Of a DNA stretch of 64,000 bases, positions 1-8,331 are shown piece after piece. The translations under genes were made by a program, and so were the position numbers. The notes beneath the pieces are model-generated. The model did no database searches. It was not told where the DNA came from and saw only the letters and a program-made list of their open reading frames with translations. The DNA comes from a virus, in IMG/VR virus record IMGVR_UViG_3300009709_000022, positions 1 to 64,000 of that record. One strand, written 5' to 3'. Positions within the stretch are counted from its first letter, which is position 1; every line of letters begins with the position of its first letter.

Positions 1-65
1 AGACGCGCTGCATTCAAAACGCAGTGTCCTCGGACGTGCGGGTTCGATCCCCGCGGCCGGCACCA
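1..65 (+). tRNA. tRNA-Leu(CAA), 5' truncated by window edge
   Basis: Anticodon loop TT-CAA-AA, long variable arm, T-loop GTTCGAT, ends ACCA. Confidence 0.85.
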
Positions 66-69
66 AGAT

Positions 70-158
70 AGTGAGTTGGGGGAGATGGATTAACCCAGCG
101 TCCTGCTAAGACGCCATGCCTGCGGGCATCATCAGTTCGAATCTGATACTCACTGCCA
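70..158 (+). tRNA. tRNA-Ser(GCT)
   Basis: Acceptor AGTGAGT/ACTCACT, arm GCGTC-CTGCTAA-GACGC, long V arm, GCCA end. Confidence 0.93.
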
Positions 159-161
159 CAT

Positions 162-250
162 GGAGGGTGCCGAGCACGGTGCTCAAACGGTCCTGAAAAC
201 CGCGGTCTGTACGCGAGTGCAGAATGGTTCAATTCCGTCACCCTCTTCCA
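162..250 (+). tRNA. tRNA-Ser(TGA) with C33
   Basis: Acceptor GGAGGGT/ACCCTCT, loop CC-TGA-AA, long V arm, CCA. Confidence 0.85.
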
Positions 251-253
251 CAT

Positions 254-338
254 GGACGCGCGGGCAAAAGGTCGCCCACCCAGTCTGTAAAACTGGGGCC
301 TCACGGCACTGAAGGTTCGACTCCTTCCGCGTCCACCA
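254..338 (+). tRNA. tRNA-Tyr(GTA)
   Basis: CCAGT-CTGTAAA-ACTGG arm, V arm, ACCA. Confidence 0.95.
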
Positions 339-381
339 TTTTTCTGTTGCATCCATGCTTGCACTCGTGAGAGATTGTTTT

Positions 382-459
382 TGCGCGGTAGAGCAGTCCG
401 GTTAGCTCGCGTGGCTCATAACCACGAGGTCGGGGGTTCGAATCCCTCCTGCGCAACCA
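382..459 (+). tRNA. tRNA-Met(CAT), initiator-like
   Basis: CGTGG-CTCATAA-CCACG; fMet-type D arm GAGCAGTCCGGTTAGCTC; only two G-C pairs at stem base and a U1-A72 pair. Confidence 0.88.
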
Positions 460-461
460 TT

Positions 462-957
462 GAAGTTCGTATCCGGGAATCAGAGAAATCTGTTGGGTGC
501 GCGCAACACAAGGCCTCTTCGAGAAAGTCCTGTGTGCCCTGGGGGTACTGAAGCCATATATCTCCCGTAGGTGGCTTCTGCGAGTCCGTCGTAACAAGGT
601 CAGCAACCGTAATATCTGCCAAAACGGACCACCGGTGACAGCTCGGAGAGACGAGCAGACATTGAGATACCACACGAGAGGGTGAAAGGAATCTCTGCTG
701 TTGTACGGTGTGTCGCTCCTAAGAGGCCAACGGTAAGGGAGCCAGCTCTACGATCAGACAACGGTTGGGCGGCAACAGAGATGCAGTTCCGAGTATCCCG
801 TATTCAGAGAGCCGGATGGGCACCGGCGTAAGCGAAGGCAAGCCGCGCCAGCGGTGATGGCAGACAGAACCGATCGATTGAGCCAGGGTATATTCCACCC
901 TGATCGGTGCCGCCGAGCAACCAAAGTCCGAGCGAGCCCGGCGCTATATCCGGGCAA
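462..957 (+). ncRNA. Large structured ncRNA, GOLLD-like candidate
   Basis: No credible ORF; helices 550-557/571-578, 584-589/624-629, 691-702/771-782, 869-876/901-908, 936-941/950-955; lies inside a tRNA array. Confidence 0.5.
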
Positions 958-979
958 AACTTTTTGCGAGGACGAAACC

Positions 980-1246
980 GTGGAAAAGACAGTTGAAGAT
1001 CGGGTAAGCGAAATACTTTTCGAGCAGATGCATGGTGGCGCTCTGACTTACAACTCGGACGAAATCAAGCCAGAATCTAGTCTTGCCGAAGATTTGGGGT
1101 TCGACTCGCTCGACCTGGTAGAGACCGTGATGACGCTTGAAGAGCAGTTCGACATCACGATCACCGACGAAGAAGCGGAAGCTGTTTCAGACAAAACCTT
1201 CGCGGATGTTGTTACTCTGGTGAAGAAAAAGCTGGAGGAGAAGTAG
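980..1246 (+). CDS. acpP: Acyl carrier protein
   Basis: LGFDSLDLVE phosphopantetheine-attachment motif, acidic, LEEQFDITI; GTG start after GAGGA. Confidence 0.9.
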   Translation: MEKTVEDRVSEILFEQMHGGALTYNSDEIKPESSLAEDLGFDSLDLVETVMTLEEQFDITITDEEAEAVSDKTFADVVTLVKKKLEEK

Positions 1247-1248
1247 CC

Positions 1249-1524
1249 ATGGCAGATCCGACGATTCCGGACGTAGAAGATAAAGAGCTTCCGCTGTACG
1301 TGTGCCACAAGGAAGTGCGCGCGCTGAAAATTGCCCGCGTCGAATACTTGAGCATGTCACTGGTGCGTGTCTACTTCGAAGATGATTCGTTTGGATTCCG
1401 CGACTATGCCACGGAGAACCGTCCTGTTCCGCAGGCCGGCTACTACTACGTGGAGTATTCGAACGGCTACTACAGTTCTTCGCCGGCGGAAGAGTTCGAA
1501 GACGGTTACACGTTGAAGCAGTAA
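1249..1524 (+). CDS. Conserved small phage protein
   Basis: YxCHKEVRALKI and GYYxxSPAEEFEDGY motifs recalled from phage proteins; RBS GGAGGAG. Confidence 0.7.
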   Translation: MADPTIPDVEDKELPLYVCHKEVRALKIARVEYLSMSLVRVYFEDDSFGFRDYATENRPVPQAGYYYVEYSNGYYSSSPAEEFEDGYTLKQ

Positions 1525-1535
1525 GCCATCAAGAT

Positions 1536-1673
1536 GGCGCCGCGCAGGCCGATCCAATCGGTCTAGTGGCGCCCCGGAAACGTTGAGCCTGGGTGATGCC
1601 AGCACGGAAGGATAGGCGCAAGCCGAAAGGAGTGGGGGCGCAGAGGAACCCCTTCCATCCGCCTCAACGTTTC
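1536..1673 (+). ncRNA. Candidate structured RNA upstream of tRNA-Asp
   Basis: 11-bp stem 1577-1587/1663-1673 enclosing 1606-1611/1651-1656 and a GCAA tetraloop hairpin; separate hairpin 1536-1573. Confidence 0.4.
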
Positions 1674-1679
1674 ACCCTC

Positions 1680-1753
1680 GGTCCCGTCGTTCAGTGGCAG
1701 GACGCTTGATTGTCTATCAGGCTACCGGAGTTCGATTCTCCGCGGGACCGCCA
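1680..1753 (+). tRNA. tRNA-Asp(GTC)
   Basis: GGTCCCG/CGGGACC acceptor, loop TT-GTC-TA, GCCA. Confidence 0.92.
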
Positions 1754-1774
1754 AAGATTTGCGAGGACGACGCA

Positions 1775-1945
1775 ATGGACCTATACGCGAGAAAAGCTGA
1801 AGACGGCAGTTGCTGGCTTGTTCTGAAGAGAGTTTTCGGCCCGAGCAGTGAGGGCTGGAAAGAGCGATTTCCCCGGTGGGAAGAAGTTGTTGGTATGGGC
1901 TCTACTCGGAAACAAGCATTTGCCGATGCTGAGGCGCGCGCATGA
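1775..1945 (+). CDS. Small hypothetical protein
   Basis: ATG after GCGAGGACGA motif; overlaps next gene (ATGA). Confidence 0.6.
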   Translation: MDLYARKAEDGSCWLVLKRVFGPSSEGWKERFPRWEEVVGMGSTRKQAFADAEARA

Positions 1946-2208
1946 GTAACTGGGGAACAGTAGAGACGTGGAGCGAAGACAAGAGCGAGACTATCGCGCT
2001 TGATGTCGTTCCTGTTTTGGAGTTCAACGGTGAAGTGTTCATGTCGGCCGCGCATGAAAAGGGTGAGCTTTGCCAATGCAAGCCACTTGGTATGAAGAAC
2101 GACCAAGGAATCCAGATGTGGATTCACAACGACCCCGAACATCCAGGTTCAAACGAACGCATCGCCACTGGCGATTACGAAGGAGTGCATCATGGCCGGA
2201 TTCAGTAA
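1942..2208 (+). CDS. Hypothetical protein
   Basis: Coupled ORF in operon. Confidence 0.6.
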   Translation: MSNWGTVETWSEDKSETIALDVVPVLEFNGEVFMSAAHEKGELCQCKPLGMKNDQGIQMWIHNDPEHPGSNERIATGDYEGVHHGRIQ

Positions 2209-2410
2209 AGAAGACATTGAAGAGTTGTTCACGTATCACGCACCAAAGGATGATCAGCCACAGCGATACCAGGCCATTCGTGATGCTGCCAAGCAGTTTG
2301 CGCTCGTGTTGATTGCAAACACGAAGCCGAGCGCGGACCAGTCATCCGCTGTTCGCCATCTTCGCGATTGTGTGATGACTGCCAATGCCTCGATCGCGCT
2401 GGAGAAGTAG
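2192..2410 (+). CDS. Acb2/Tad1-hairpin-like protein (putative immune-signal sponge)
   Basis: FTYHAP...RYQAIR.AAK...S.D.S.A...L...VM.ANASIA pattern, recalled family resemblance; RBS AAGGAG. Confidence 0.6.
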   Translation: MAGFSKEDIEELFTYHAPKDDQPQRYQAIRDAAKQFALVLIANTKPSADQSSAVRHLRDCVMTANASIALEK

Positions 2411-2412
2411 CC

Positions 2413-2565
2413 ATGGAGAAGACCTACCAAGTTAAGGCTTTCACTTCGTGCCGTGACATGGAAGATTGGCTCAACGAAAACGCGACTGAATATGAACCCA
2501 TCAGCATTGCAGACGCCGACCGCTATGTCACTGTGTTGGTGAAGCGCATCATCAAGCCGAGTTAG
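2413..2565 (+). CDS. Small hypothetical protein
   Basis: RBS GGAGAAG, tight operon spacing. Confidence 0.55.
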   Translation: MEKTYQVKAFTSCRDMEDWLNENATEYEPISIADADRYVTVLVKRIIKPS

Positions 2566-2566
2566 C

Positions 2567-3082
2567 ATGGCGAAGATCGTCACCTATCCGAGCGACATCC
2601 TGAAGACGAACTGCACGCCGGTAGAACCCGGCAGCAGTGTCGCTCACCATCTGCAGCGCGAGCTTCGTGCCACCATGCACGCCGGCCGCGCTCAGGGGAT
2701 CGGCCTGGCAGCGCCGCAGATTGGCATTACGCTGCGCGCGTTCGCCATGGATACGCGATTCCTGAAGTTGAAGTGCCCCGACGTGTTCTTTAATCCTGAA
2801 GTGATCGAAGAGAGCCCAGAGGTGGACGTAGAGGAAGAATCTTGTCTCAGCTTTCCGCCCAAAGTGAAAGTGCGTGTACAGCGCAGGAAGCGTGTGCGGG
2901 TCAAGGCGTGTGATGTGAACGGCAAGGATTTCGAGATTGATTTGGTCGGGCTCGCCGCGCGTTGCGCGCTGCATGAGATCGACCACCTGAACGGCAAAAC
3001 AATCCTTGACCACGCGGGGAAGAAAGAAAAAAATCGCATCCTTGGTGAAATTGCGGTTGACATCAAGCGTGGGCGCAAGTAG
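2567..3082 (+). CDS. def: Peptide deformylase
   Basis: GIGLAAPQIG, ESCLS, HEIDHLNG motifs. Confidence 0.95.
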   Translation: MAKIVTYPSDILKTNCTPVEPGSSVAHHLQRELRATMHAGRAQGIGLAAPQIGITLRAFAMDTRFLKLKCPDVFFNPEVIEESPEVDVEEESCLSFPPKVKVRVQRRKRVRVKACDVNGKDFEIDLVGLAARCALHEIDHLNGKTILDHAGKKEKNRILGEIAVDIKRGRK

Positions 3083-3085
3083 ATT
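3057..3085 (+). promoter_or_regulatory. Sigma70-type promoter for tRNA operon 2
   Basis: TTGACA (3057-3062), 17 bp, TAGATT (3080-3085). Confidence 0.8.
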
Positions 3086-3095
3086 CGAAATCGTT

Positions 3096-3167
3096 ATGAA
3101 GATGTCGATGACACATACGTTTACCAATCGCGCCGCGGCACAACCGCGCCAGGGTATCCGCATGTAA
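3096..3167 (+). CDS. Attenuator leader peptide 1 (MKMSMTHTFTNRAAAQPRQGIRM)
   Basis: 23-codon ORF just after the promoter; codons 6-20 are all read by downstream-cluster tRNAs. Confidence 0.75.
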   Translation: MKMSMTHTFTNRAAAQPRQGIRM

Positions 3168-3238
3168 GCGCCAGATCTTCTCCAGGTAAAACCAGAGAGG
3201 CCCCCCGGCGCTAACCAGCCCAGGGGGCCATAGTTTTT
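3167..3238 (+). terminator. Attenuator 1 (antiterminator/terminator)
   Basis: Terminator GGCCCCC 3199-3205/GGGGGCC 3223-3229 with T-run 3234-3238; competing helix 3167-3172/3207-3212 plus 3177-3182/3195-3200. Confidence 0.6.
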
Positions 3239-3244
3239 GCACGA

Positions 3245-3319
3245 TGTTCGGTAGCTCAATGGAAGAGCGCGGAGCTGTTAACTCCGGAGATGTGGGTTCG
3301 ACCCCCACCTGAACAGCCA
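3245..3319 (+). tRNA. tRNA-Asn(GTT)
   Basis: CGGAG-CTGTTAA-CTCCG, GCCA. Confidence 0.93.
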
Positions 3320-3325
3320 GTTTGA

Positions 3326-3402
3326 TGGGAAGTAGTTCAAGTAGGCAGAACGCTGCGCTCTGGACGCAGAGGTTGAAGGTTCGAGGCCTTCCTTCCCATC
3401 CA
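3326..3402 (+). tRNA. tRNA-Gln(CTG)
   Basis: CTGCG-CTCTGGA-CGCAG, U1-A72, CCA. Confidence 0.92.
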
Positions 3403-3412
3403 CAAATTTTGA

Positions 3413-3486
3413 TCCGTGTTCGTTCAATGGTAGGACGGCGACCTTTGGAGTCACCTATCGGGGTTCGATTCCCTGACACGGATCCA
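3413..3486 (+). tRNA. tRNA-Gln(TTG)
   Basis: Loop CT-TTG-GA, acceptor TCCGTGT/ACACGGA, CCA. Confidence 0.9.
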
Positions 3487-3490
3487 GTTT

Positions 3491-3566
3491 GCGGGAATAG
3501 CTCAGTGGTATGAGCGTCGGCTTGCCAAGTCGAAGGCCGTGGGTTCGACCCCCACTTCCCGCTCCA
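3491..3566 (+). tRNA. tRNA-Gly(GCC)
   Basis: GCGGGAA start, loop TT-GCC-AA, TCCA. Confidence 0.95.
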
Positions 3567-3573
3567 CTTCAAC

Positions 3574-3649
3574 GCCGGTGTAGCTCAGTTGGAAGAGCAG
3601 CGCACTCGTAACGCGCAGGTCGCCGGTTCGATTCCGGCCGCCGGCTCCA
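3574..3649 (+). tRNA. tRNA-Thr(CGT)
   Basis: Loop CT-CGT-AA, canonical cloverleaf. Confidence 0.93.
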
Positions 3650-3673
3650 AAAGGAAGAGGAAGGAGGCAACGT

Positions 3674-4186
3674 GTGGGACGCATTCTTGAAGCTGCGGTG
3701 TTGGTTCTCAACGCATCGTACGAGCCTATTCACATCTGCGGCGCACGTCGTGCTCTTTCTCTTGTAGTGAAGGACACGGCGCATGTTGAGCATCACACGG
3801 GCCGCGAAGTCTATGCCGGGATCATGCTTCCGAGCGTTATCCGTTTGAAGCGGTACCGCAAGGTTCCGAATCGTGTGCAGGTGTTGACGCGGAAGAATGT
3901 GCTGATGCGCGACAACAACACCTGCCAGTATTGCGGCGTAGTGTTCGTGCCGTCTGAATTGACGCTTGACCACGTCATGCCGCGGTCTCGGGGTGGTATA
4001 TCGACGTGGGAGAACCTGGTCGCCGCGTGTGGCCCGTGCAATCGCGAGAAGGCGGATCGTACGCCAGAGGAGGCCTGCATGCCGCTTCTGCGGCGTCCCA
4101 GGCCTGTCACGCTACACACGGCGCGCGGGATCCTTCGTCAGCATGGTCATTCGATGGAGGCGTGGCGTCCGTACTTGTTCTTTTAA
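3674..4186 (+). CDS. HNH endonuclease (McrA-like)
   Basis: VLVLNASYEP, RDNNTCQYCG, TLDHVMPRSRGG, NLVAACGPCN; RBS AAGGAGG. Confidence 0.92.
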   Translation: MGRILEAAVLVLNASYEPIHICGARRALSLVVKDTAHVEHHTGREVYAGIMLPSVIRLKRYRKVPNRVQVLTRKNVLMRDNNTCQYCGVVFVPSELTLDHVMPRSRGGISTWENLVAACGPCNREKADRTPEEACMPLLRRPRPVTLHTARGILRQHGHSMEAWRPYLFF

Positions 4187-4262
4187 GCCGCTGGAGTTCG
4201 GGAGGTAGAACGCTCCCTTGGTATGGGAGAGGATTCGGGTTCGACGCCCGACAGCGGCTCCA
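4187..4262 (+). tRNA. tRNA-Thr(GGT)
   Basis: CTCCC-TTGGTAT-GGGAG; abuts HNH stop codon. Confidence 0.88.
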
Positions 4263-4269
4263 ACAATTC

Positions 4270-4345
4270 GCCCGGTTAGCTCATTCGGTAGAGCGCCTGT
4301 TTTGTACTCAGGAGGCGGCGGGATCATAGCCTGCACCGGGCTCCA
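4270..4345 (+). tRNA. tRNA-Thr(TGT), atypical T-loop
   Basis: Loop TT-TGT-AC; T-loop ATCATAG. Confidence 0.8.
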
Positions 4346-4351
4346 ACATGT

Positions 4352-4427
4352 GGAGGGTATGGCCGAGCGGCAGAGGCGCAGGTCTGTGGCACCTGAAACC
4401 GGAGTTCAAGTCTCCGTGCCCTCCCCA
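4352..4427 (+). tRNA. tRNA-His(GTG)
   Basis: CAGGT-CTGTGGC-ACCTG, encoded G-1:C73. Confidence 0.92.
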
Positions 4428-4447
4428 ATAAGTTCGTTGTAAGAAGT

Positions 4448-4522
4448 GGGCGCGTAGTGCTAGCGGGAACACATCCGGCCTGCAACCGGAAATTGAGGGT
4501 TCGACTCCCTCCGTGTCCACCA
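4448..4522 (+). tRNA. tRNA-Ala(TGC) with C33
   Basis: TCCGG-CCTGCAA-CCGGA; G3:U70 Ala identity pair; A73. Confidence 0.87.
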
Positions 4523-4528
4523 AGTTTT

Positions 4529-4604
4529 GGCTGAGTAGCTGATGAGGTCTTAGCGCCGCGCTGAAAACGCGGAGATGTCGGTTCGATACCGGCCTCAGCC
4601 ACCA
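4529..4604 (+). tRNA. tRNA-Phe(GAA)
   Basis: CCGCG-CTGAAAA-CGCGG, ACCA. Confidence 0.92.
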
Positions 4605-4609
4605 TAGTT

Positions 4610-4683
4610 CGGGGTATAGCTGGAGGGTCAAGCCTACGTCCTGGGAACGTAAGATGACAGTTCGATTCTGTCTACCCCGACCA
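4610..4683 (+). tRNA. tRNA-Pro(TGG) with C33
   Basis: C1-G72, A73, TACGT-CCTGGGA-ACGTA. Confidence 0.85.
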
Positions 4684-4687
4684 TCAT

Positions 4688-4765
4688 CCACCCGTCGCCC
4701 AACTGGATAGGGCACCGCGCTACGAACGCGGAATAGTGTAGGTTCGATCCCTACCGGGTGGACCA
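4688..4765 (+). tRNA. tRNA-Arg(ACG)
   Basis: CCGCG-CTACGAA-CGCGG, ACCA. Confidence 0.92.
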
Positions 4766-4779
4766 TTTACAATGCTTGC

Positions 4780-4965
4780 ATGAGCGAGCCAAAGTACAAC
4801 CTCATGAAAGAAGCACGCGACACGGTGAGTGGGTGGGCGGCAGTGGCGAAGAACCTCACGCTGAAAGCCGCTGAGGCGATGGCAGCTCGCCGCGAAGCAC
4901 TTACACCTTGGGCATTCCACCACAAGAATCCCGATCGCGTGTATCACTTGATTGAGCCGGTGTAA
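4780..4965 (+). CDS. Small hypothetical protein
   Basis: Fills the gap between tRNA clusters; start overlaps ATGCTTGCAT motif. Confidence 0.55.
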   Translation: MSEPKYNLMKEARDTVSGWAAVAKNLTLKAAEAMAARREALTPWAFHHKNPDRVYHLIEPV

Positions 4966-4971
4966 AAATAA

Positions 4972-5002
4972 TTGCGGCGAACAGCGGTTCCTGTGGTAAG
5001 TT
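4972..5002 (+). promoter_or_regulatory. Putative extended -10 promoter for tRNA operon 3
   Basis: TGnTAAGTT at 4994-5002, TTGCGG at 4972, AT-rich upstream. Confidence 0.5.
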
Positions 5003-5024
5003 CTTCAACAGCAGATACACGATC

Positions 5025-5099
5025 ATGAGGCAGATAACCAAAAACGTCGTCACCATTCAGATTCGCGGAAAGCGGATGTGGGAAGGTGCGCGTACTTAG
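5025..5099 (+). CDS. Attenuator leader peptide 2 (MRQITKNVVTIQIRGKRMWEGART)
   Basis: 24 codons including AGG, ATA, AAA, GTC, ATT, GGA, AAG, CGG, ATG, TGG, GAA, matching downstream tRNAs. Confidence 0.75.
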   Translation: MRQITKNVVTIQIRGKRMWEGART

Positions 5100-5167
5100 G
5101 GGTCTGTTTCACAAGCTCACTTGCGACAAGTGAACGGGCCCCTCCTAACCGGAGGGGCTTTGCTTTT
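5098..5167 (+). terminator. Attenuator 2 (antiterminator/terminator)
   Basis: Terminator GCCCCTCC-TAACC-GGAGGGGC-TTTGCTTTT (5138-5167); 11-bp antiterminator 5098-5108/5133-5143 overlapping the stop codon. Confidence 0.8.
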
Positions 5168-5179
5168 GGTCTTTGACAA
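5168..5179 (+). promoter_or_regulatory. boxA-like Nus antitermination element
   Basis: GGTCTTTGACAA resembles rrn boxA GCTCTTTAACAA. Confidence 0.45.
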
Positions 5180-5198
5180 TCGAATCGTATTCACCAAT

Positions 5199-5274
5199 GA
5201 GGGTGAAGTTCATGTGGAAGAACGCCGGTCTCCAAAACCGGATGCTGCCCGTTCGAACCGGGCCACCCTCGCCA
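5199..5274 (+). tRNA. tRNA-Trp(CCA)
   Basis: CCGGT-CTCCAAA-ACCGG, GCCA. Confidence 0.93.
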
Positions 5275-5275
5275 T

Positions 5276-5350
5276 CCCTCTTTAGCTCATCGGAAGAGCA
5301 ACCGGCTCATAACCGGTAGGCGCCAGGGTCAGCACCTGGAAGAGGGACCA
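5276..5350 (+). tRNA. tRNA(CAT), elongator Met or Ile2; atypical T-loop
   Basis: ACCGG-CTCATAA-CCGGT; T-loop GTCAGCA. Confidence 0.8.
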
Positions 5351-5352
5351 TC

Positions 5353-5438
5353 GCGTCCGTGGCAGAGAGGCTTATGCACCCGACTCTTAATCGGAGGGAG
5401 AGATCCCAACGTCGGTTCGAATCCGGCCGGACGCACCA
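5353..5438 (+). tRNA. tRNA-Lys(CTT) with long variable arm
   Basis: Loop CT-CTT-AA; V-arm GGGA-GAGA-TCCC; Leu-like D arm. Confidence 0.8.
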
Positions 5439-5444
5439 ATTTTC

Positions 5445-5521
5445 GGGATCGTCGCATAGAGGATAGCTGCACTCGCCTTTTAAGCGAAGAGACGTGAGTT
5501 CGAATCTCACCGGTCCCACCA
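5445..5521 (+). tRNA. tRNA-Lys(TTT)
   Basis: Loop CT-TTT-AA, ACCA. Confidence 0.9.
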
Positions 5522-5526
5522 TTTAT

Positions 5527-5602
5527 GCGCCTGTAGCTCAGAGGACAGAGCAGTGGACTTCTAAGCCAACGGCCGCTGGTTCGACTCCAGCCAGGCGCTC
5601 CA
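5527..5602 (+). tRNA. tRNA-Arg(TCT)
   Basis: Loop CT-TCT-AA (weak stem), canonical D and T arms. Confidence 0.87.
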
Positions 5603-5607
5603 GTTTT

Positions 5608-5681
5608 GGCGTGTTCGTTCAACGGTAGGACACCTGCTTTTCACGCAGAGAACACGGGTTCAACTCCCGTACACGCCCCCA
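5608..5681 (+). tRNA. tRNA-Glu(TTC)
   Basis: Loop TT-TTC-AC, GGCGTGT/ACACGCC. Confidence 0.9.
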
Positions 5682-5682
5682 T

Positions 5683-5758
5683 GACCCTGTAGCTCAGTGG
5701 AGAGAGCGGCCGGCTCCTACCCGGCAGGTCCCGCGTTCGAGTCGCGGCAGGGTCACCA
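5683..5758 (+). tRNA. tRNA-Arg(CCT)
   Basis: GCCGG-CTCCTAC-CCGGC. Confidence 0.9.
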
Positions 5759-5762
5759 ATTC

Positions 5763-5839
5763 GCGCGCGTAGCTCAGTGGACCAGAGCGATGCTCTCCGA
5801 AGGCATAGGCCGCAGGTTCAAGTCCTGCCGCGCGCACCA
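5763..5839 (+). tRNA. tRNA-Arg(CCG)
   Basis: ATGCT-CTCCGAA-GGCAT. Confidence 0.92.
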
Positions 5840-5844
5840 GTTTC

Positions 5845-5920
5845 GCCAGATTCGACAAGCGGCTAAGTCACTTGGCCTACACCCAAGCATCCGGGGGTTC
5901 GAGTCCCTCATCTGGCACCA
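5845..5920 (+). tRNA. tRNA-Val(TAC) with C33
   Basis: CTTGG-CCTACAC-CCAAG, A73. Confidence 0.87.
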
Positions 5921-5924
5921 AGTT

Positions 5925-6026
5925 CGCCCATTCGTCTGGCCGGCGGTTCGAGACCGCGCTGCGCACCCAACCGCGCAAACGGGTCCGGCTCCGAGTGGGG
6001 GTGGTTCGATTCCACCAGGGCGGCTA
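5925..6026 (+). ncRNA. tRNA-like element lacking a normal anticodon arm and CCA
   Basis: Perfect T arm GGTGG-TTCGATT-CCACC (6000-6016) and CGCCC/GGGCG acceptor-like stem; aberrant middle; ends GCTA. Confidence 0.45.
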
Positions 6027-6047
6027 ACGGCCGCTCGCGCAGGGTTT

Positions 6048-6121
6048 CCTCGCGTAGCTCAACGGAAGAGCTTCCGCTTGATAAGCGGCAGACAGTGGTT
6101 CAACTCCACTCGCGAGGACCA
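6048..6121 (+). tRNA. tRNA-Ile(GAT)
   Basis: Loop TT-GAT-AA, ACCA. Confidence 0.92.
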
Positions 6122-6168
6122 TCTCATGCAAGCATCGTGTATGCTGTCACAAAAGGAGGGCAACCTGC

Positions 6169-6378
6169 ATGCCCATTACGACACGACGGAAACGAAAGAC
6201 CACGCCGCGCAAGACTTCACTGAAGAAGATTGCAACTCTGATCATCATGCGCGACAGCATGACTGAGTTCGAGATCGCCGACGCGAAGAGAGGGTTCGCG
6301 AAGTCCGGGGTGAATCTGATTGTCATTCCTTACGGCAGTGGATCGTCTACGCCTCGTATTGAGGCTCAACCGTTTTAA
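6169..6378 (+). CDS. Small basic hypothetical protein
   Basis: RBS AAGGAGG; stop abuts tRNA-Gly. Confidence 0.6.
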   Translation: MPITTRRKRKTTPRKTSLKKIATLIIMRDSMTEFEIADAKRGFAKSGVNLIVIPYGSGSSTPRIEAQPF

Positions 6379-6454
6379 GCGAGCATCGTCCAATGGTTAG
6401 GGCCACAGCCTTCCAAGCTGTTGATGACCGGTTCGAGTCCGGCTGTTCGCTCCA
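6379..6454 (+). tRNA. tRNA-Gly(TCC)
   Basis: ACAGC-CTTCCAA-GCTGT, TCCA. Confidence 0.93.
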
Positions 6455-6460
6455 AATCAG

Positions 6461-6484
6461 AAGGCCACCCATTCGGGTGGCCTT
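6461..6484. terminator. Hairpin closing the tRNA array between convergent units
   Basis: AAGGCCACCC-ATTC-GGGTGGCCTT. Confidence 0.75.
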
Positions 6485-6490
6485 TGCCAT

Positions 6491-6892
6491 TTACGCTTGC
6501 AGCATGCCAGAGGAAAGAAGACCTCTTAAAATACCTGCAAAAATGTGATCTTTTGCGCGTTGCGCCTTTGGCAGTTCAGAGTAGGGGACGAAGCATGGAT
6601 GCTCTTTTTTTTCCGCATCCTTAACGGGACCGTACCCCCATCCATCGGCACGTTTTTGTTCCATCCAGGACTCGTGAAGTCGTTCCGGTATCTGCCGAAG
6701 GCGCTCGCTGCCATCTCCGTAATATCGCACCGTCCGCAGGAAGTATTTGACGCCGGTAATGTTCGTTTCTTGCTGCCATGAAGGAGCGGATGACCAGTCA
6801 GGAAAAGATGTGTCTCCCAATGCAAGGGCGTATGCCCGGTTGGCTTCGTAGCAAATACGCGCCGCTTCTTCAATTGTGATGAGTTCTTCCAT
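6491..6892 (-). CDS. RyR-domain phage protein
   Basis: HESWMEQKRADGWGYG...K.HPCFVPYSELP..QRAKD. Confidence 0.85.
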   Translation of the reverse strand: MEELITIEEAARICYEANRAYALALGDTSFPDWSSAPSWQQETNITGVKYFLRTVRYYGDGSERLRQIPERLHESWMEQKRADGWGYGPVKDAEKKEHPCFVPYSELPKAQRAKDHIFAGILRGLLSSGMLQA

Positions 6893-6966
6893 GATGTCCT
6901 CGCTAGTGGATGTGGTGATGCTTGCACGAATGCTATCATCACACCATCTCAACGCTGGTGCGTCCT

Positions 6967-8331
6967 GTGATCATTTACAACTCACTATTCCCCCAGGTGC
7001 AGAACGGGCTCGCTGCCCGGCTCCGCTCCATGCTGCCCACCCTTGCCGCCTACGGCTTCAACGGCCTGCTGTGGCCACCCCTCACACAGAACGGATCGGG
7101 TGGAGAGAAGTCGCAGTCCCTCGGTTATGACAAGCGGTACGACCTGCATGTTGGACAGTGGGATTCTCTCCGCTGGGGTTCCGCGCAGGATGTTCAGGCG
7201 ACGAATCTGGAAGCCCACCGCAACGGGATGATGGTGCTGGAGGATTCTGTCATCCATCAGTATTCTGGCGCCGGCGCGCAGACATACAACGAGCTGGGAG
7301 CGGAAGGCCAGCCCGATTCTACGCTGTTCCCAAAGCGTCCTTCCTGCTTCGTCCATCCGGAGACGCCGCGAGACACGCTATTCGACGCTGATGGCGATCA
7401 GCCATACGGCGACCAGGTAACGTACCAGCACTGCAAGCCCGCCGGATACATGCTCAAGGGCATCATCCAGGCAACGCAGTGGCGTCGCAACCGTCTAGGC
7501 ATGGACGGCATGCGCGTGGACATGGCTAAAAACGAGGCCTCTGCGATCGTCAAACAGTACGCTGCAGCCGTTGGCGGGTGGAACTTCTGCGAGACCTTCG
7601 TTGGTGACAAGGGCGAACTAGGCAGCTTCATCTCGCAGACTGGACAGCGCGTGCTGGACTTCCCATTCCATTGGGCAGTGCAACACATCTGTGACCACGG
7701 TTGGTCATTGCGCTCATTCCCCGGCAGCTCGCTATGCGAGATGAATGCCAGCAAGAGCGTTCTCTTTGTTGACACCGCGGACACGGATCAGAGCAACGAT
7801 GAGAACGTGAAGTTCAACAAGCTGTGGGCATACCTGCTTGCGTTGACCATGCCCGCGGCGGCCGCACTGGTTTACGCGGGCGATTACGAACGCTATGGGC
7901 TAGCGAAGCCCATCGACAACCTTGCGTGGATTGCCACGACGTTCGCTATTGGCGCGCTCACTTGGCAGCACGTCGACGACACGGCGTTGGTGTGGTCGCG
8001 GGATGGTGACGGAGGCTCCCTGGGATGGTCCGGTGGCTTGCTCTGTGCCTTCAGCACGCAGCCGGTGGAGCAACGCAGCGTATGGACTCCAACCACCTTT
8101 GCGTCAGGCACACACCTGCACGATTACACCGGACATGGGCCCGACTTGTGGGTGGACGATGACGGATGGGTTGAGCTGCAGCTTGGGCCCAACGTCAACG
8201 GAACCGCCGCAAACTACGTCTGCTACGCACCTGCCGGCGTCAATTACAAAATACCCATCCACGCGCGTCCAGAGGGCATCCGGGGCTCGCTCTACGACTT
8301 CTCTGACATAACTGTGAGGTTCACCGCATGA
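6967..8331 (+). CDS. GH13 alpha-amylase-family glycoside hydrolase (start uncertain, 6922-6967)
   Basis: LWPP, GYD, DGMRVDMAK (nucleophile), FCE (acid/base), FVDTAD (region IV). Confidence 0.85.
   Translation: MIIYNSLFPQVQNGLAARLRSMLPTLAAYGFNGLLWPPLTQNGSGGEKSQSLGYDKRYDLHVGQWDSLRWGSAQDVQATNLEAHRNGMMVLEDSVIHQYSGAGAQTYNELGAEGQPDSTLFPKRPSCFVHPETPRDTLFDADGDQPYGDQVTYQHCKPAGYMLKGIIQATQWRRNRLGMDGMRVDMAKNEASAIVKQYAAAVGGWNFCETFVGDKGELGSFISQTGQRVLDFPFHWAVQHICDHGWSLRSFPGSSLCEMNASKSVLFVDTADTDQSNDENVKFNKLWAYLLALTMPAAAALVYAGDYERYGLAKPIDNLAWIATTFAIGALTWQHVDDTALVWSRDGDGGSLGWSGGLLCAFSTQPVEQRSVWTPTTFASGTHLHDYTGHGPDLWVDDDGWVELQLGPNVNGTAANYVCYAPAGVNYKIPIHARPEGIRGSLYDFSDITVRFTA

Follow-up and report, generated by a model that had tools for sequence, protein, structure and literature searches.

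A candidate leader-peptide attenuator upstream of a tRNA gene cluster in an uncultured phage

Classical attenuation by translated leader peptides has been recognised in amino-acid operons from the 1970s onwards. Enterobacterial attenuators of the multivalent type include thrL (Thr and Ile) and ilvL/ivbL (Ile, Leu and Val), and trpL, hisL, pheL and leuL also belong to the enterobacterial systems. In E. coli, the pheM leader of the pheST operon brings leader-peptide attenuation to a gene of the translation machinery, that of Phe-tRNA synthetase. tRNA genes are present in many large phages; to our knowledge, however, almost nothing is known about how these genes are regulated, and our literature search returned no description of leader-peptide control of tRNA genes, either in phages or in cells. 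Here, we analyse Leader 2, a short open reading frame (ORF) with a terminator located between two phage tRNA gene clusters (clusters 2 and 3), and we assign a probability of roughly 0.5 to the reading that it is a working ribosome-mediated transcription attenuator which serves as an internal checkpoint between them. If this is true, such a ribosome-based sensor would explain the sorting of phage tRNAs into clusters by amino acid, the avoidance of tRNA over-production and a possible phage response to tRNA-cutting host defences, and classical attenuation would extend to a new gene class, the tRNA genes.

The arrangement of Leader 2 is similar to that of the enterobacterial attenuators. Both have a short ORF enriched in the regulatory amino acids and an intrinsic terminator just upstream of the genes concerned. 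The four segments of the enterobacterial leaders pair either as 1:2 and 3:4 (the terminator) or as 2:3 (the antiterminator), and the same alternatives are predicted for Leader 2, whose stop codon is likewise placed such that a finishing ribosome would mask segment 2. Nevertheless, there are distinct differences. The genes that Leader 2 would regulate are tRNA genes rather than biosynthetic enzymes. The enterobacterial peptides carry a run of one to three kinds of residue, whereas Leader 2 lists eight amino acids, once or a few times each, and would respond to the supply of tRNAs no less than to that of amino acids. It also lacks a promoter and a Shine-Dalgarno sequence (SD) of its own and shares no sequence homology with these leaders. 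pheM resembles it in that leader-peptide attenuation is aimed at the translation machinery and not at biosynthesis, but pheM controls a synthetase, senses one amino acid only, and is equipped with a promoter and a ribosome-binding site of its own. T-box riboswitches likewise use tRNA status to switch a terminator/antiterminator pair upstream of translation-related genes; unlike Leader 2, they need neither a ribosome nor an ORF and contain a conserved T-box sequence and a specifier loop. In mycobacteria, leaderless short polycysteine ORFs act as amino-acid-responsive attenuators of downstream genes (bioRxiv 10.1101/834739). They resemble the two related units of the same phage described below (Leaders 1 and 3), in which the ORF begins at the 5' end of the transcript (predicted +1 to +4), whereas Leader 2 itself is not leaderless; the mycobacterial ORFs sense cysteine and control Cys-related operons, and their mechanism is not an intrinsic-terminator switch before tRNA genes (10.1101/834739). 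Leader 2 would thus be a variant of the leader-peptide attenuator outside any described family, because the genes behind it (11 tRNA genes and a 69-codon ORF) are neither amino-acid biosynthesis nor aminoacyl-tRNA synthetase genes, because it has no homology to known leaders, and because the promoter and initiation signals that lie just upstream of Leaders 1 and 3 are missing from Leader 2.

The window, a stretch of 64,000 nucleotides, covers the start of an IMG/VR virus record (first 64 kb of 96,524 bp) that carries a direct terminal repeat of 123 bp. The record represents an uncultured phage (~96.5 kb) sampled from a moss metagenome (soil/moss). ARAGORN called 30 tRNA genes genome-wide, arranged in three blocks, to which a Ser(TGA)-like one at 161-247 can be added. 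Cluster 3 holds 11 tRNA genes, beginning with tRNA-Trp at 5199, and one 69-codon ORF at 6169-6378. The features considered here are collected in Table 1.

Table 1. Coordinates of the leader units, their RNA elements and the tRNA clusters. Positions refer to the window unless the genome is named.
Feature	Position	Strand	Description
Leader 2 ORF	5025-5099	+	ATG, 23 sense codons and TAG; MRQITKNVVTIQIRGKRMWEGART
Segment 1	5026-5036	+	Pairs with 5101-5110 in the full-length minimum-energy fold; 10 bp, 3 of them G-U
Inner hairpin	5044-5093	+	Inside the ORF; strands CGUCAC and GUGCGCG
Segment 2	5098-5108	+	Antiterminator 5' strand; overlaps the TAG stop; lies under a ribosome positioned at the stop
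Segment 3	5133-5143	+	Antiterminator 3' strand; overlaps the terminator 5' arm
Intrinsic terminator	5136-5165	+	GC-rich 9-10 bp stem, UAACC loop, U-run UUUGCUUUU; hairpin alone -19.1 kcal/mol
Decayed copy of the Leader 1 promoter	4972-5024	+	ATTGCGG block and spacing kept; -35 is CGAACA, TTCTTC at the -10 position
Small conserved protein gene	4780-4965	+	61 codons; between cluster 2 and Leader 2
Leader 1 unit	3057-3238	+	Promoter TTGACA-17-TAGATT at 3057-3085; terminator 3199-3229 plus T-run; precedes cluster 2
Leader 1 ORF	3096-3167	+	23 codons; cluster 2 downstream
Leader 3 ORF	Genome 96059-96133, outside the window		Cluster 1 (Leu/Ser/Tyr) downstream
tRNA cluster 1	Genome right end, crossing the repeat to 70-459		Three Leu, then Ser, Ser, Tyr, CAT
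tRNA cluster 2	3245-4765		Asn, Gln x2, Gly, Thr x3, His, Ala, Phe, Pro, Arg-ACG
tRNA cluster 3	5199-6454	+	Trp, CAT, Lys x2, Arg(TCT), Glu, Arg(CCT), Arg(CCG), Val, Ile, Gly(TCC)
tRNA(CAT) of cluster 3	5276-5350		Met or Ile2

In Leader 2, the ORF (5025-5099), the terminator (5136-5165) and the first cluster-3 tRNA (5199) follow one another, so that the unit stands directly upstream of the genes it would regulate. The composition of the encoded peptide matches these genes. With the test statistics for the leaders having been picked post hoc, when the sequence had already been viewed, 16 of the 23 non-start residues belong to the eight kinds of amino acid that cluster-3 tRNAs carry (the cluster-3 set: W, M, K, R, E, V, I and G; binomial p = 0.0036, and p ~0.004 in the comparison with windows and random codons described below). 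All eight amino acids of the set occur (p ~0.012), nine in-set residues stand in an uninterrupted run (p ~0.003), and the peptide contains no Leu, Ser, Tyr, Asp or Cys (p ~0.0016). Each of the other seven residues (Q, T, N, T, Q, A and T) is served by cluster 2. Among 943 short ORFs, i.e. the short ATG ORFs in six frames of the whole 96.5-kb genome, Leader 2 ranks second for cluster 3 by the fraction in the set and first by the run of cognate codons.

At the level of codons, the match was evaluated against in-frame windows from 94 long ORFs and against random codons drawn according to genome usage. The first-pass annotation had listed fourteen codons of Leader 2 as being read by cluster-3 tRNAs, including the run GGA AAG CGG ATG TGG GAA. 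All fourteen are present in the ORF, and the run indeed consists of six successive exact Watson-Crick cognates of six cluster-3 tRNAs (p ~0.0007); for eight of the 11 cluster-3 tRNAs an exact codon is found (p ~0.0015). The claimed coverage, however, stands in part only. While the amino-acid match holds, cluster 3 reads just 10 of the 23 non-start codons under standard wobble rules (p ~0.05-0.07), and when synonymous codons were redrawn by genome usage with the peptide fixed, there was no excess of exact cognates in Leader 2 (p = 0.20), nor in Leader 1 (p = 0.83) or Leader 3 (p = 0.56). The signal in Leader 2 is therefore the choice of amino acids and not of synonymous codons; a codon-level 'checklist' as the signal was rejected, and that description overstated the match.

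The terminator hairpin of Leader 2 is strong. A GC-rich hairpin is followed directly by a U-run at 5136-5165, as expected of an intrinsic (Rho-independent) terminator; the stem has 10 pairs, seven of which are G-C, the loop has five nucleotides and the tail is TGCTTTTGGT. Of the terminator-like sites in the first 8 kb, this hairpin (5136-5160, with TGCTTTTGG behind it) ranks first, and it is among only 18 sites genome-wide that pass a stricter rule. It stands 33 nt upstream of tRNA-Trp. In the full-length fold, segment 1 pairs with 5101-5110 and is followed by a small hairpin (5117-5133) and the terminator, with a z-score of -4.7; the AUG of Leader 2 is base-paired in this fold. The inner hairpin is possibly a pause or structural element, and its two strands are kept in Leader 3, where they lie in another reading frame.

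An 11-bp pairing of AGGGGTCTGTT (5098-5108) with AACGGGCCCCT (5133-5143) had been put forward as an antiterminator, in which the terminator would lose its 5' arm to a competing helix. The duplex itself was recovered, with nine Watson-Crick and two G-U pairs and an RNAduplex energy of -18.1 kcal/mol. When the transcript is cut before the 3' arm of the terminator, this helix is the minimum-energy structure in the absence of a ribosome, and the duplex is stronger than those in 97% of dinucleotide shuffles (63 of 2000 were as good; p ~0.03), or p ~0.003 for the three leaders combined. By contrast, the stabilization of the ensemble by pairing of the terminator 5' arm in the partial transcript showed no excess over shuffled upstream sequence. 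This measure is unremarkable because any upstream sequence of such composition offers a partner and because the native 1:2 pairing competes. Sequestration is favoured by the minimum-energy structure and the duplex energy but not by the ensemble, and the antiterminator is only marginally better than chance. The proposed masking of segment 2 by a ribosome at the stop codon is geometrically sound in silico: with a 30-nt ribosome footprint masked, the antiterminator was kept up to codon ~21 and was lost only at codons 23-25 (the stop). Since the terminated fold is 15 kcal/mol more stable, the switch would need to be kinetic, in the style of the trp operon.

The chief support for Leader 2 as an attenuator is its context: two paralogous units precede the other two tRNA clusters, and each is matched to its own cluster. 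Leader 1 has 15 residues in a row within the cluster-2 set and covers all nine of its amino acids (run p ~2-7e-4), and Leader 3 contains 13 successive Leu/Ser/Tyr codons, a run found in none of 25,513 windows or 200,000 random draws. Both rank first for their own clusters among the 943 short ORFs. In the 3 x 3 matrix of leaders and clusters, the best match of every leader is its own downstream cluster, and the combined amino-acid-level binomial p for the three is 7.8e-8. Just upstream of the first tRNA, each unit closes with a GC-rich hairpin whose apex is UAACC and with a run resembling TTTTTGC. The apex is identical in the three terminators (5146-5150, 3214-3219 and genome 96169-96173), whereas the stems have diverged; two base pairs have changed in compensatory fashion between the stems of Leaders 2 and 3, one from U-A to G-C and one from G-C to C-G. 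The alignment score of Leader 2 with Leader 3 is 77.5, compared with 24 +/- 5.5 for shuffles; the alignments of Leader 1 with either of them are weaker, yet still significant. Leaders 2 and 3 are, from their sequences, clear paralogs, with conserved blocks at the start, the inner hairpin, the end of the ORF and the terminator, while the middle codons diverge in line with the clusters; ORF length and the distance from stop to terminator are conserved among the modules. It follows from this paralogy that the units would have arisen by duplication, after which the variable middle of the ORF came to mirror the tRNAs behind it.

The three units differ in their initiation signals. The two best sigma-70-like promoters genome-wide, TTGACA-17-TAGATT (3057) and TTGACG-18-TAGATT (96023), lie directly upstream of Leaders 1 and 3 and score 12/12 and 11/12, respectively. 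The ATG of each of these leaders falls at about +1 to +4 of the predicted transcript, and they would therefore be effectively leaderless mRNAs. The genome-wide scan gave no sigma-70-like promoter before Leader 2, and no SD core occurs within 18 nt of its ATG, although ~60% of the long ORFs in this phage have an SD near a possible start. Leader 2 must therefore be transcribed from upstream, across cluster 2 and the 61-codon gene, which makes its AUG internal and unmarked and its translation no more than putative. Having neither a promoter nor a ribosome-binding site of its own, it is the weakest of the three units. The label of a 'textbook' attenuator in the first-pass annotation thus does not hold, given the missing promoter and SD, a match confined to amino acids and a marginal antiterminator. 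The ATG overlaps a TGA (ATGA, 5025-5028) that ends an 18-codon frame, which starts at TTG 4972 and is in register with the 61-codon gene; the overlap could provide translational coupling or may be due to chance. The 61-codon ORF also has no SD, and three homologs of 61-63 aa are 43-54% identical to it.

Downstream of the terminator, the promoter scan found no promoter-like site before cluster 3. A candidate in 5166-5198 was rejected: TTGACA at 5173 has no usable -10, and its start would land inside tRNA-Trp. Expression of the 11 cluster-3 tRNAs would therefore require read-through, an argument for a terminator that is leaky or conditional.

A mechanism can be proposed from these elements. The in silico observations are the ORF with its biased amino-acid content, the terminator, the alternative pairings with their geometry, and the paralogy; translation of Leader 2, its coupling to transcription and a stall-driven structural switch are what we infer from them. 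Leader 2 would decide whether transcription from the cluster-2 operon (promoter at 3057) enters cluster 3. A ribosome would translate the 24-codon ORF, two thirds of whose codons need tRNAs for Trp, Met, Lys, Arg, Glu, Val, Ile or Gly. If any such charged tRNA were scarce, the ribosome would stall within 5028-5090 and leave segment 2 free to pair with segment 3 as it emerges; the 5' arm of the terminator would then be held, and RNA polymerase would continue into tRNA-Trp and the ten tRNAs behind it. With fast decoding, a ribosome at the TAG would cover segment 2, the hairpin at 5136-5160 would form and transcription would terminate at ~5165. The net effect would be feedback control by the phage over its own tRNA supply. 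Extended to all units, the phage would monitor its tRNA supply with three feedback sensors, and every tRNA operon would be gated by a translated 'test' peptide composed of the amino acids for which the tRNAs behind it are specific, a reading to which we give even odds. A shortage of charged tRNAs would then switch on precisely the matching block of phage tRNAs, possible causes of the shortage being host shut-off, codon mismatch or an anticodon-nuclease defence.

Other explanations of Leader 2 have to be weighed against this attenuator model. Leader 2 might be a relic, i.e. a duplicated unit of the Leader 1/3 type that has lost its promoter and its 5'-terminal AUG and is no longer translated, leaving a constitutive leaky terminator that keeps cluster 3 below cluster 2. 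The promoter remnants homologous to those of Leader 1, in which the hexamers are destroyed, the missing SD and the strong preference for the terminated fold at equilibrium are all consistent with decay. On the other hand, the ORF has remained open after duplication at the same length (24 codons), and its middle has gained the cluster-3 amino-acid set instead of the Leu/Ser/Tyr of Leader 3; together these imply that translation was under selection until recently, if not to this day. The eleven tRNAs, for which there is no other promoter, would also depend on the read-through. We consider a relic unlikely, although it deserves to be taken seriously. Chance provides another account, in which 5136-5165 is an ordinary intrinsic terminator or insulator between transcription units, and the ORF and the 11-bp complementarity are accidents of GC-rich sequence. 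An antiterminator that is marginal against shuffles, and no better by the ensemble measure, would be expected from this, as would the non-significant codon-level match and the wobble coverage of 10/23 (p ~0.05-0.07). Nevertheless, chance has difficulty with an amino-acid-level p of 0.0036 and a rank of 2 among 943 ORFs, and more so with an arrangement that is found three times and matched to the cluster each time (combined p ~8e-8), in paralogous modules of conserved ORF length and stop-to-terminator distance. Furthermore, the scan placed no promoter downstream of the terminator. An ordinary terminator is, in our judgement, a rather unlikely explanation.

The remaining alternatives dispense with the ribosome. 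A phage or host RNA-binding protein could bind the hairpin with the UAACC loop, or a processive antitermination complex could override it, in which case the ORFs would be irrelevant; such factor-dependent antitermination, which we hold to be improbable, would time tRNA expression during infection. It would account for an apex that is invariant in three terminators whose stems have diverged with compensatory changes, a loop constraint for which a plain terminator has no need. However, the shared loop may simply reflect recent common descent, no candidate factor was found and the Rfam matches in 1-7000 are to tRNA only, and the cluster-specific amino-acid content of the three ORFs would be left unexplained. 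Direct sensing in the manner of a T-box, where uncharged tRNAs would pair with leader codons and stabilize the antiterminator with no ribosome involved, draws its sole support from leader triplets that are complementary to downstream anticodons. Against it, many different triplets share one short frame, the signal lies at the level of amino acids rather than codons, and neither a T-box match nor a recognisable specifier loop or T-box bulge is present, which makes it very improbable. Any known RNA family, T-box included, was rejected as a candidate on the Rfam scan of 1-7000 (E <= 1), which gave only tRNA-type matches.

Relatives of the locus and RNA data were sought in several collections. The leader region, the neighbouring 584-aa protein and the cluster-3 tRNA array gave only scattered single-tRNA similarity among cultured phages, and single-protein and motif scans of IMG/VR returned nothing or chance matches. 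Of the relatives, the nearest is a 92,244-bp ENA contig, whose proteins are 65% and 58% identical. Profile scans with the amylase-like neighbour recovered relatives in JGI metagenomes and Acidobacteriaceae genomes, none of which had a tRNA cluster, and 33 IMG/VR viruses with the same packaging ATPase carry 0-1 tRNA each. The family of the 61-codon gene was not found in the genome contigs searched. In one metatranscriptome from a moss sample, only two 151-nt contigs match the region, both of them within the HNH gene of cluster 2. The closest cellular homologs of the amylase-like gene (6922-8331) are from Acidobacteriaceae (Terriglobus, Terracidiphilus, Silvibacterium and Tunturiibacter; 44-56% identical). 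The gene is probably host-derived, and as its nearest cellular homologs sit in this family, Acidobacteriaceae is the likely host family of the phage.

Several further features of the tRNA island were observed. The HNH endonuclease gene (3674-4186; PHROG 16726, E = 1.5e-33) lies within cluster 2 with Thr(CGT) and Thr(GGT) on either side, and the island also holds an acyl-carrier-protein-like gene (PP-binding; 980-1246) and a peptide deformylase gene (2567-3082). The tRNA-like element at 161-247, uncalled by ARAGORN, scores 37 bits with the Rfam tRNA-Sec model, under the cut-off of the model, and resembles a type-II Ser(TGA) tRNA with C at position 33. In cluster 3, tRNA-Lys(CTT) (5353-5438) is 86 nt long, ~10 nt over a normal class-I tRNA, with an apparently enlarged variable region. 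The gap between tRNA-Val and tRNA-Ile (5921-6040) contains two T-arm-like motifs (GGTTCGAGACC and GGTTCGATTCC) and no callable tRNA; the motifs are probably decayed tRNA genes. Between the tRNA(CAT) of cluster 1 and the acyl-carrier-protein-like gene, ~500 nt (460-960) have no convincing ORF and no Rfam family match. This stretch closes with a hairpin and a T-run (936-955, then AAAACTTTTT) and may be a structured RNA or a long leader.
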